NCBI GenBank assembly: GCA_046757025.1
Contig: JBHHXN010000056.1
Location: forward strand, 1 to 28,432
DNA: 28,432 nt
Source: a bacterium
Lineage (GTDB): Bacteria > Zhuqueibacterota > Zhuqueibacteria > Oceanimicrobiales > Oceanimicrobiaceae
Reading direction: 5' to 3'
Made by a program: the position numbers and the translations under genes. The notes under the pieces were generated by a model. It was not told where the DNA came from and searched no databases. It saw nothing but the letters and a program-made list of their open reading frames with translations. Shown in pieces: positions 8,479-25,190 of this stretch. How positions within the stretch are numbered: the first letter of the stretch is position 1; each line of letters opens with the position of its first letter.

Positions 8479-9279
8479 TCAAATTATTTTTGCTTCATTA
8501 ATTAACTTTTGCCATAAATTTTCTAAGTTGAGTTTGTTGACCCAATATTTCAAATAAACCTGATCTAAGTTCTCAAATTGAACCTCATAAATTCTTAAGG
8601 CATCTTTAAATTGCTTTTCACTGCCACCAGACAGTTTAGCCCATTTTAACTTGACTAATATCGTATCTTCCGGGCTGGATACACAGATATTGGCACCCAA
8701 CACATGTTCAATATATTTGCGAGCAAATCTTGACTTGTCAAACTCGTCGTCTGTTAATATCCAAAAATCAACCTTATCCCCTTCCGTGACACTTATAAGA
8801 TTGAACATGTTTCTCTGAATAATAGCTTGATTTATAGTATGACTTCTGAACTTTTGCATTTTTTTACAAGAAAATGGCTAAATGACGCGAAGTGAATGAC
8901 ACGACCCGTCATAAAGTCATCAGGTCATTTGCCTTTGGCGTCATTTTAGACAGCAGCAATAATTCACCTCTGTCAATGACAGCGAGGCTTAATGACGGCT
9001 GATAATAGCACCATGGTTTGGACCACAACAAAGCAAGTCATTTAAACATTTGCGGCTCCGCCGCGCTAGGCTTTCCTCATCTAAATAATATTCAGGTTGA
9101 GAAAATTTAGCAACTAAAGATTTTACAGTTGATTTTTGAATTGCCACTACGATATCGATATCATGAGTTGATCTCGGTTCTCCTTGCAAGCTTGATGCGA
9201 TTGAACCGGTTACCATGTATTCGATTTCTGCCTCTTCAAGGGCTTGAATTACTTTGATTAATAATTCCTGTTGTGACAT
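8479..9279 (-). pseudogene. Nucleotidyltransferase-fold protein (toxin-like partner of a two-gene module) interrupted by a 234-bp element
   Basis: ORFs 8989-9279 and 8479-8859 share a frame. Deleting the element gives a 188-aa ORF reading ...YYLDEES-INQAIIQRNMFNLI..., with TGSIASSLQGEPRSTHDIDIV (GS...DxD), SPEDTILVKLKW and SEKQFKDA. Confidence 0.85.
8836..9070. mobile_element. 234-bp non-autonomous element, copy 1 (boundary ambiguous by 1 bp: 8836-9069 or 8837-9070)
   Basis: Reverse complement of 23409-23643 with one mismatch seen (8841 vs 23638). Interrupts a CDS. No TIR or TSD. Confidence 0.9.
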
Positions 9280-9473
9280 TTATCCAGTCGTTTTTTTAGT
9301 AGTTCATTAAATTCGGCTTCTGATAAGTTAGGGAACCGTTTCCGTAAACCATGAATAAAAAGCTGTTTACTGAAAACAGACAACTCAAATGTTTTGAGCA
9401 GCTTTTTCTCGGGCGACATTTTTCGCAATGATTGAATATAAATTTGATGATTTAATTGTTTTTTTAATTGCAT
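9258..9473 (-). CDS. Small helical protein, putative antitoxin-like partner of the nucleotidyltransferase
   Basis: 71 aa with the pattern LRKMSPEKKL...GLRKRFPNLSE. Overlaps the start of the downstream gene by 22 bp and lies in an AT-rich segment. Confidence 0.7.
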   Translation of the reverse strand: MQLKKQLNHQIYIQSLRKMSPEKKLLKTFELSVFSKQLFIHGLRKRFPNLSEAEFNELLKKRLDKCHNRNY

Positions 9474-10645: not shown

Positions 10646-11389
10646 ATGCCCCCGGATCACTCAAATCTGAAAGCCGAATCCTTTGACATCTCTGAAAGGC
10701 AAAAATACGTGGCGGAGCTGTTTGATACGCTGGCGCCCAAGTACGACCGATTCAACCGCTGGGTCAGTTTGTTCCGCGATGCGAAATGGCGGCAGGAAAC
10801 CGTTCGTCAATTGCAGGAGCGCGCCACCGGCGTGGTGCTGGATCTGGCTGCCGGCACCGGCGATTTAGCACAAGCGGCATTGTTGGCTGGCGCTCAGCAG
10901 GTACATGTTTTCGATATTGCCTTCGAAATGCTTTCGTTTGCGAAACGAAAAATCGACCAGCCGCTTCGACCAAATCAACAAGTGACTTTTGAACTGGGAT
11001 CAGCGAACCAATTGCCGTTTCAGAGCGAATCCATCGATGGCATTGTCAGCGGCTTTGCCATTCGAAATATCTATCATTTTCTGGACGAAGTGCTGTCGGA
11101 AATTTACCGCGTGCTCAAGCGCGGCGGGCGTCTGGCGGTTCTGGAGCTGAGCCAACCGGGCAATCCGTTCATTCGGCTGGGATTTCGTTTGCACATGAAA
11201 ACCGTCATGCCCCTGATAGGCAGAATCATCGCCGGCAATTCTGAACCCTTTCAGTACCTCTATCAAACCACTATGACTTTTCTCAAAGCCAAAGAATTTG
11301 CACACAAACTGACCGAAGCCGGTTTTCACGACGTTCAATTCCAAAAATATTTGTTTGGCGGCATTGCTATTCACAGCGGCTGCAAGTAA
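10646..11389 (+). CDS. ubiE: Ubiquinone/menaquinone biosynthesis C-methyltransferase (UbiE/MenG family)
   Basis: VAELFDTLAPKYDRFN, VLDLAAGTGD SAM motif, SGFAIRN and EIYRVLKRGG. Starts 7 bp after aroF. Confidence 0.85.
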   Translation: MPPDHSNLKAESFDISERQKYVAELFDTLAPKYDRFNRWVSLFRDAKWRQETVRQLQERATGVVLDLAAGTGDLAQAALLAGAQQVHVFDIAFEMLSFAKRKIDQPLRPNQQVTFELGSANQLPFQSESIDGIVSGFAIRNIYHFLDEVLSEIYRVLKRGGRLAVLELSQPGNPFIRLGFRLHMKTVMPLIGRIIAGNSEPFQYLYQTTMTFLKAKEFAHKLTEAGFHDVQFQKYLFGGIAIHSGCK

Positions 11390-11394
11390 TTAGT

Positions 11395-11568
11395 GTCTGA
11401 CTGAAAACGACCCTATCTTCCCGAAGGCCTGCTGGCCGAGGGTGTATGCCTGTTGGCTCGGCGGGGCCGGCCCTTAGCTTCGTCGAAGAGCCTGTCCTGA
11501 GCTTTGTCGAAGGGACGCCGTCACGAAGAGGTTGTTAATTTGCGCATTTCTATAGTTTTCTTTCAGTC
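11395..11568. mobile_element. MITE-like element family B, copy 1
   Basis: Imperfect TIRs gtctgactgaaaac / gttttctttcagtc. Body is homologous to 15348-15499 (cgaccctatcttccc, gcctgtcctgagctttgtcgaagggacgcc, gcgcatttct) and carries an extra degenerate 'cttagcttcgtcgaag' unit. Confidence 0.72.
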
Positions 11569-14894: not shown

Positions 14895-15347
14895 AAAGAA
14901 CCGCCAACTATTGACTCCTTCTTATACACAGAACGGCGAACTCATGGTCCATCAGGACTTCCCCATAAAATTCAGGTATGCAGGAAAGCTTCTTCAGTTA
15001 TTAGCCACCCCGCTCTATTTTAAAGTCTTTGGGAATAACCACCATGTTGATTTTTCAGAGGAACCATCGAGACTCCCAGAATCAAAATATAAAAAAAATA
15101 CCATTAATTCAACAGATTTGATGTTGACGCTCCGGACTTAATCCGGCCCTTGTCTGTTTTGAAATTAACTAATTGACTATTTGAATGTCTGATGAACTGA
15201 GTGAGTTGCTTGCTGGAGATGTGTTTATTTTTTAAATCCGTGTCACTAAAAGTGTTGTGAAATGGTTTTAAATTTGTTAAATTTAACTGGTTGTTCAAAA
15301 TGCCATTTCTGAGAATCGAATTGGTAAAAAATTTGTTATCAAATAAT

Positions 15348-15499
15348 GTCTGAACGAAAACGACCCTATCTTCCCGGAAGGCCTACTGACCGCGGGTGAA
15401 ATCCTTCTCTGCTCGGCAGGGCCTGTCCTGAGCTTTGTCGAAGGGACGCCTTTGCGAAAAGGTGTCTAAATCGCGCATTTCTCGAGTTTTCGTTCAGAC
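15348..15499. mobile_element. MITE-like element family B, copy 2
   Basis: Perfect 14-bp TIR gtctgaacgaaaac (15348-15361) / gttttcgttcagac (15486-15499), extendable with one mismatch to TA-bounded ends. Homologous to 11395-11568. Confidence 0.78.
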
Positions 15500-16841: not shown

Positions 16842-16907
16842 ATGTAAACGGAGGTGAAATAGTGCAAGCCTGCACGGACAGGGGGGGGCGGCGGTGTTCA
16901 AGCTTTA

Positions 16908-16995
16908 CAGACTGTGTGAAAAGTAGCTTAGCTGACTAAAAACCAAAAACATCTTGAATGACACAAGCCTGGAACTTGATTTTTCACACAGGCTC
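16908..16995. mobile_element. MITE-like element family C, copy 1 (about 88 bp)
   Basis: TIRs cagactgtgtgaaaa / ttttcacacaggctc with TA on both sides. Same ends as 24915-25094. Confidence 0.65.
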
Positions 16996-17148
16996 TAAAG
17001 CGTGAATCCCCTTGATTATAAACACCTCAACCCGTTGATGGAACCATTCAACGGTAAATTGCTCAAATTAGGTAAAAGTAAATGAAGAGCATATAATATG
17101 TTAGCAAATTCAGAAAGGTTATTTAAAAAAGTTGATTGAGGATCAGTC

Positions 17149-23370: not shown

Positions 23371-23408
23371 GTGTTGATAGCCAGTAAAAGCTACCAAATT
23401 TCACAAAT

Positions 23409-23643
23409 CCTAGCGCGGCGGAGCCGCAAATGTTTAAATGACTTGCTTTGTTGTGGTCCAAACCATGGTGCTATTATCAGCCGTCATTAAGCCTCGCTGT
23501 CATTGACAGAGGTGAATTATTGCTGCTGTCTAAAATGACGCCAAAGGCAAATGACCTGATGACTTTATGACGGGTCGTGTCATTCACTTCGCGTCATTTA
23601 GCCATTTTCTTGTAAAAAAATGCAAAAGTTCAGAAGTAATACT
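23409..23643. mobile_element. 234-bp non-autonomous element, copy 2 (inverted relative to copy 1, intergenic)
   Basis: cctagcgcggcggagccgcaaa...gttcagaagtaatact matches the reverse complement of 8836-9070. The shared flank (t)ataaa extends to 23648. Confidence 0.9.
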
Positions 23644-23751
23644 ATAAAAAAACTTTCATGTTGAAATTTCAACGCCACTTTTTCACACTACTCTTGCAAT
23701 TATGAATCGAACAACCCTAACTGACCTATTGAATGCTGGTTGATTTTCACG

Positions 23752-24914: not shown

Positions 24915-25094
24915 GAGACTGTGTAAAAAGTCAACTTCTAGACTTTTGTCATTCCCCGCCTAGCGGGACAGGCAGGAGGAATCTTTTTCGTTTGGAAGGA
25001 AAGGGCTGTTTTCTTAAAAAGATCCCGCGGTTGCGGGATGACAATAATGGCGTATTGGGTTTTTAACCGCGATGTCACTTTTTCACACAGTTTG
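24915..25094. mobile_element. MITE-like element family C, copy 2 (about 180 bp), carrying a REP-like inverted pair
   Basis: TIRs gagactgtgtaaaaagt / actttttcacacagtttg. Interior holds tgtcattcccc...gaatct and agatcccgcggttgcgggatgaca. Confidence 0.68.
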
Positions 25095-25190
25095 TACAGC
25101 TTTAACACCCAAATTCCAATTGATGATGAATGGCTTAGAAAGGTTTTCACATGGTTGTCGAAATTCCGATAAAAATATGTTTGTGAGCCC

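Follow-up and report, generated by a model that had tools for sequence, protein, structure and literature searches.

A recently spread non-coding 234-bp element with common superfamily ends, a candidate for rolling-circle copying in trans

The window analysed here, 28,432 nucleotides of a bacterial contig, carries two copies of a 234-bp non-coding element that has spread recently and that, at odds we put only slightly above even (about 0.55), is copied in trans by an HUH rolling-circle transposase of the IS91/Helitron kind. Most miniature elements known from bacteria derive from DDE insertion sequences and have terminal inverted repeats (TIRs) and target-site duplications (TSDs). The element in the window belongs to a whole superfamily that has neither, differs between samples and breaks genes, and TIR-based finders would miss such elements. 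We found no description of these ends in openly readable main texts, where the hairpin words occurred only in unrelated papers, and IS91, IS200 and HUH are absent from the accessible main text of a 2024 review of bacterial miniature elements (PMC10969869).

Copies of the element and its recent activity

A self-comparison of the window returned two inverted arms, 8831-9074 and 23405-23648, that are 99% complementary (Table 1). They hold the two near-identical copies claimed in the earlier note, which differ within the 234 bp at a single base (position 6, G versus T). The range given there for copy 1, 8831..9070, does contain the element but also takes in the target TTTAT and the following G.

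Table 1. Features of the element in the window
Feature	Position	Strand	Remarks
Copy 1 of the 234-bp element	8836..9069	+	AGTA...CTAG; alternative register 8837-9070
Copy 2 of the 234-bp element	23410..23643	-	intergenic; after TTTTAT (23649-23644), before G at 23409
Target motif TTTAT	8831..8835	+	host coding sequence, not duplicated
Left end, putative ori	8836..8874	+	NN-TATTA-type start; A/T-rich palindrome 8850-8874, imperfect in the 234-bp subfamily
Right end, putative terminator	9051..9069	+	hairpin GCGGC-TCC-GCCGC 9052-9064, then CTAG 9066-9069
G after right end	9070	+	most paralog comparisons assign it to the target; the empty allele of run X2 lacks it
Non-coding interior	8875..9050	+	AATGAC/GTCATT repeats like those flanking four-helix-bundle genes; varies between subfamilies
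Interrupted host gene, nucleotidyltransferase-like	8479..9279	-	PF10706; DUF6036 below cut-off; 188 aa without the element

Deleting either 8836-9069 or 8837-9070 (234 bp) from the interrupted gene gave a 188-aa ORF reading DEE-S-INQ, and 188 aa is the commonest length among the host-gene homologs (80 of the 120 listed). Deletions of 232, 233 or 235 bp led to early stops and one of 231 bp left an extra residue. Since only removal of 234 bp restores the 188-aa frame, the insertion made no duplication, in agreement with the earlier reading that the host ORF is restored without duplicated bases. The same reading frame rejects a duplication of TAG or AG at insertion, and neither a TIR nor a TSD was found at the 234-bp element in the ends of the copies, their flanks and the host-gene frame. 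The start of the interrupted gene is overlapped by a 71-aa ORF without a Pfam match (9258-9473, minus strand), and the two possibly form a two-gene module. Other repeat families of the window (11388-11566 and 15341-15497; 16893-17006 and 25079-25110) are probably TIR-type MITEs, and the genome has hundreds of such repeat segments, which break the assembly.

In the window's genome (G000; 374 contigs, 94.8% complete) we found 21 full copies with different flanks, 20 of them 234 bp and one 233 bp long. Another 13 left halves lie at contig ends, and 17 right ends lack a left partner. The 21 full copies exclude chance or the assembly artefact considered in the earlier note, and they show none of the TSDs that it had named as evidence against its own reading. 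Among the 20 copies compared (one mis-anchored copy was dropped), 10 were identical and eight sequence types were present.

We then turned to contigs of four public read runs of one study (X1-X4), of which X1 may be the source of the window. At copy 1, contigs of X1 and X3 pass from the host gene into the element and contigs of X1, X3 and X4 lead out of the element into the gene's remaining half; the whole filled site is spanned by no contig among those listed for the four runs. A contig of run X2 joins 8836 to 9071 with a 234-bp skip (one side 30 bases), which is the empty site that the earlier note had proposed to screen for. Its companion proposal, a screen for circle junctions, gave none in the contigs of the four runs, contigs being a form of the data that drops rare forms, and no empty allele was seen in them at the C28 copy. 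Because one of the four public runs carries the empty site, the insertion of copy 1 is polymorphic, and because the flanks hardly vary between runs (a single difference is listed outside the element), gain or loss at this site was recent. The identical copies and the site empty in one run support the view of a recently active non-autonomous element.

A superfamily with common ends

The superfamily is held together by a left end of the form NN-TATTA plus an A/T palindrome, a right end made of a GC hairpin plus a YTRG-like tetranucleotide, and the target TTAT. Across G000 and all fetched loci there were 100 distinct complete sites, 91-409 bp long and falling into 26 interior clusters, in which the longest ORF is 77 aa. 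Another 39 sites have a left end only, some of them with degenerate right ends that the pattern missed and others possibly through deletion, and 30 lie too close to a sequence end for judgement. G000 alone has about 95 left ends. The 234-bp subfamily accounts for 33, a 160-bp subfamily for 23 and a 178-bp type for five; 11 more, a few of them spurious, belong to none of these, and an older left-end type gave 26 pattern matches.

Within the bacterial family, 16 of 21 genomes had the left-end pattern (its reversed control gave one match). Among 167 genomes of the phylum, 18 had the right-end pattern, and 13 of these 18 are relatives in the family; G013 and G000 do not count as independent here, as they share a stretch that is 99.4% identical. 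This 2.7-kb stretch (G013:C131, locus L189, and G000:C254) is common to two genomes of different genera, includes one element and reflects bin contamination or recent transfer. Elsewhere the left-end pattern matched six loci in a genome contig collection and seven in metagenome contigs, all of them short or truncated elements, while the right-end pattern had no match in viral contigs and the matches in plasmid and phage records were all short chance ones (27-41 bp). Another 57 stretches around left ends, taken from five relatives, contained no long element.

The interiors are non-coding mosaics of short repeats, some of which contain internally deleted GxxExxY genes (a family label taken from PF13366 searches) with repeat arms. 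Intact GxxExxY and four-helix-bundle genes are mostly without superfamily ends, and therefore these cassettes look like cargo of the elements. One locus (L234, G013:C206) has a GxxExxY remnant between two left ends in facing orientation and lacks a right end.

Several other arrangements were seen. Superfamily elements of G000 are often nested in other repeats, and a 160-bp sister element (G000:C130:6258-6417) breaks the gene of a 4Fe-4S dicluster protein just past the N-terminal leader. Two 52-bp mini-elements (G000:C150:6608-6659 and G000:C256:158-209), both after TTTGT and before CTGTG, consist of a left end folded back into a 22-bp inverted repeat around a T loop and look like a fold-back product of that end. 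Many right ends (C193, C229, C324, C139) are followed by a GAATWAT-CAGGTT-like motif, which also occurs alone and may be the end of another repeat family.

The asymmetry of the ends, as originally claimed, holds: the left A/T palindrome and the right GC hairpin are unrelated and form no TIR. At each position of the right stem, 31-34 of 34 distinct ends are paired, with G:C changed to A:T in four; the pattern by which these ends were selected favours pairing. The left palindrome beat 95% of shuffles in 23 of 58 elements (fold z of -0.6 in the window's element and -3.4 in that at L065). Taken singly, a hairpin folded no better than its shuffles. The 3' tetranucleotide, which the end pattern constrains, is CTAG in 30, TTAG in 25, CTGG in 16 and CCAG in 8 of the 100 complete sites. 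At the other end the first base is A in 78, G in 18, T in 2 and C in 2, and it also varies among similar copies in G001 and G013; 76 sites start with AG, and an older sister type starts with TC.

Target site and a one-base discrepancy

The bases before the left end are TTAT in 64, CTAT in 10 and TTAG in 5 of the 100 sites, against a genome background of 0.42% for TTAT, and T holds the second position of the target tetranucleotide in 68 of 71 left flanks. The target TTTAT(A) of the earlier note was thus right in its T-rich left motif and incomplete in its extent, since the next base after the right end is G in 90 of the 100 complete sites. All 21 full copies of the 234-bp subfamily start with A, and 20 have a G directly after their right end.

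Where a copy sits inside another repeat, we read the target base hidden by the insertion from paralogs. It was G without exception at C28 (10/10, right side), C241 (12/12), C77 (5/5), C79 (5/5) and C324 (9/9), and G in the majority at C36 (8/9), C47 (7/10) and C273 (6/8); it was mixed at C51, C109, C125, C266 and C288 and mostly T at C16, C180 and C351. At the C101/C34 site, A stands in 10 of 12 paralogs aligned across the joined site, a case weaker than direct evidence as these paralogs are about 80% alike. The homologs of the broken C130 gene are not conserved at the point where the hidden base would specify Tyr or His. Because the paralogs mostly show a hidden G, most sites read TTAT^G, with an element AGTA...CTAG.

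Filled sites thus read TTAT-A...CTAG-G and the paralogs mostly predict a target G, yet the observed empty allele keeps an A: in run X2 it reads TTTAT-A-CTTT (one contig, one run), though the filled site ends CTAG-G. Either one target base is replaced on insertion, or the X2 allele arose by an excision cut one base further right. The boundary of the element is uncertain by this one base, in a manner that may be mechanistic, and the discrepancy offers a direct test between rolling-circle, peel-and-paste and recombinase chemistry.

Candidate mechanisms and the mobilising enzyme

In the rolling-circle scheme that we favour, the enzyme would nick after TTAT at the left end (ori), one strand would be displaced from the nick onward until displacement stops at the hairpin-CTAG (ter), and the displaced strand would be joined into a new TTAT^G site. 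Movement would depend on the ends alone, which would account for the 26 interiors and for insertions directly behind other elements' right ends; those right behind a TTAG end (C324, L252) fit a common cut motif. Simple nick-and-join predicts an empty allele with G, whereas X2 has A; under this scheme either a target base would have been lost when the element inserted, or the excision cut would have fallen one base out of register. The end anatomy fits the HUH rolling-circle movement in trans proposed earlier; we infer the chemistry, the moved strand and the enzyme, because no transposase-bearing copy was found and 69 loci around Y1, Y2, IS110, tyrosine or serine recombinase matches are without a left end.

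Profile searches of G000 gave no match for Y2, the IS91 zinc finger, Helitron or TnpB, and 14 control genomes likewise had none for Y2, the IS91 zinc finger or Helitron; PF14214 (RepHel) is absent from G000, with the controls silent too. The matches obtained in G000 were three to Y1 (with other ends), one to IS110, two to tyrosine recombinases, one to a serine recombinase and one to a reverse transcriptase, and an H-u-H motif scan of its ORFs added no candidate. The left end was found at none of 34 Y2 loci and none of 31 Y1 loci. The sole strong right end at the 69 loci is part of an incomplete copy of the 178-bp type and follows the local RAYT-like gene at a distance of about 100 bp. Y2 genes occur in 7 of the 21 family genomes, in integrase+Y2 elements or fragments with other ends. 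A longer element with the same ends around a transposase, which the earlier note had suggested looking for, was found neither in G000 nor in relatives or contig collections; the two short ends are precise probes for the missing enzyme. In several family genomes tyrosine integrase genes lie directly upstream of IS91-type Y2 genes (L033-L042 and L203-L227) in elements with their own ends, and one of these (L035) has a tandem junction.

Among known systems, the IS91 family (IS91, IS801, IS1294) offers a closer likeness than IS200/IS605, the other relationship that had been suggested. IS91, in the accessible part of its description (PMC13181058), makes no TSD. Its target tetranucleotide has T in second place and adjoins the palindromic oriIS, and its terIS is a palindrome that has a similar tetranucleotide next to it. 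The superfamily has the same layout, with a T-second target beside a palindromic end and a GC-rich palindrome beside a target-like tetranucleotide at the other. Miniature pieces of IS801 (229-679 nt), as reported in the accessible text of PMC3189936, are also short non-coding forms moved in trans. The tetranucleotides are CTTG and GTTC there, in contrast to TTAT^G here, and the end sequences also differ; as far as those texts describe them, IS801 miniatures are one-ended pieces of a parent, whereas here both ends are kept around many unrelated interiors. IS91 further differs in that no parent or Y2 gene was found for the superfamily, and in the one-base A/G discrepancy. One-ended movement of the IS91 type would be visible in the 39 left-end-only sites, set against 100 complete ones, for which degenerate right ends or deletion would serve as well. 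The anatomy suggests that the element works like a non-autonomous IS91 or Helitron element, with membership in the IS91 family unproven.

The Helitron likeness lies in the 3' hairpin followed by CTAG, which is the transposition terminator of Helraiser (PMC4778049, accessible text), the lack of a TSD, one conserved target base on each side and non-autonomous forms with captured interiors, as well as in the older sister type that starts with TC. CTAG and CTGG ends fit the Helitron CTRR, but TTAG does not. Helitrons as described in that text start with TC, insert at A^T and have the hairpin 11 nt from the end, in contrast to the AG start, T^G target and 5 nt here, where the host is bacterial and no RepHel gene was found. 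A bolder proposal, which we hold tentatively and think doubtful in its full extent, is that these are bacterial counterparts of non-autonomous Helitrons: their transposase would lie outside the Y1/Y2 Pfam models, a 40-bp origin and a 20-bp terminator would suffice, any DNA could be captured, and one target base would be replaced per insertion. If this is true, the discovery of a long element bearing these ends would define a new class of prokaryotic transposase.

Peel-and-paste movement is unlikely by comparison. In this model a Y1 TnpA, or else a domesticated TnpA-REP, would cut out a derivative of the IS200/IS605 type in the form of a single-strand circle, which would then insert 3' of TTAT. 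The one-sided T-rich target, the lack of a TSD and the hairpins near both ends resemble the single-strand hairpin ends of IS200/IS605 derivatives and REP/TnpA-REP systems (accessible parts of PMC8266576 and PMC6006769), and the empty allele fits excision. G000 has an intact IS200 TnpA and an intact RAYT-like gene, and the three family genomes with strong IS200-type matches (G000, G013 and G018) have 65, 36 and 9 left ends, although this co-occurrence is not independent, given the 2.7-kb stretch common to G013 and G000. For the pairing of guide and cut sequences we used the IS608 scheme. The rule, whose principle is given in the accessible text of PMC8266576, held for no more than 2 right ends and 3 left ends out of 63 each, whatever the offset, which counts against this part of the earlier suggestion. 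The left and right hairpins are unrelated, the IS200 ends in the three genomes differ from those of the superfamily, and so do the ends at the local Y1 genes. A further point against such chemistry is the G that follows the right end, to our knowledge no feature of IS608. As for REP/TnpA-REP, there is no GTAG at the right hairpin, the flanks of the RAYT gene are unrelated, and the main text of PMC6006769, as far as accessible, has none of the superfamily end words. Left-end orientation relative to the replication strand, deduced from noisy contig skew, showed no significant bias (28 versus 38, p 0.27).

Somewhat less probable still is a site-specific recombinase (tyrosine, serine or IS110-type) acting on a double-stranded circle by a one-base staggered exchange, the base between TTAT and the element being the coupling base. 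Such a position would account for the A/G discrepancy, and it is consistent with a hidden target base that is G at most sites and A at two, and with the variable first base, seen also among similar copies in G001 and G013. G000 has an IS110, a large serine recombinase and an integrase fragment, and the element begins and ends with AG, the core of ISPpu9 of the IS110 family (PMC12288879, accessible part), whose MITEPpu9 is likewise short, non-coding, without classical TIRs and with AG at both junctions. In that account, however, one AG is target-derived, and a common AG core implies a net insertion of 232 bp, a length that does not preserve the host reading frame and does not match the 234-bp skip in X2. 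A heteroduplex model predicts many copies with G at the start or A at the end, which are nearly absent from the 234-bp subfamily, and the ends of the G000 IS110 have nothing in common with the element. DDE-type MITEs differ in their TIRs and TSDs. The Helitron, IS200/IS605, IS110, REP and TIR-MITE models each fail on a defining feature.

We regard it as very improbable that the repeat-armed GxxExxY nuclease or four-helix-bundle cassettes are autonomous parents whose small proteins do the moving. Several sister elements do hold internally deleted GxxExxY genes with repeat arms, and in L112 (with one internal stop) and L113 a full-length GxxExxY match has a right end some 230-260 bp away. Yet among 45 GxxExxY or four-helix-bundle loci (L080-L124) an end occurred only in L090, L112 and L113, none had left end, gene and right end in order, and the same repeat arms also stand alone around intact cassette genes. 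RNA-mediated copying by a reverse transcriptase has about as slim a chance, if not slimmer: the 3' end is structured, the whole-element RNA fold has a z of -2.5 and G000 has one reverse transcriptase, but this lies between an Avd-like gene and a template-repeat-like stretch (G000:C20:62-1843, L269), presumably the layout of a diversity-generating retroelement, Rfam gave no match to the element, and the interiors are not conserved while the 5' ends are exact. A group I or II intron, judged by the end rules of these introns, was rejected, the element being antisense to the host gene and its interiors unconserved.
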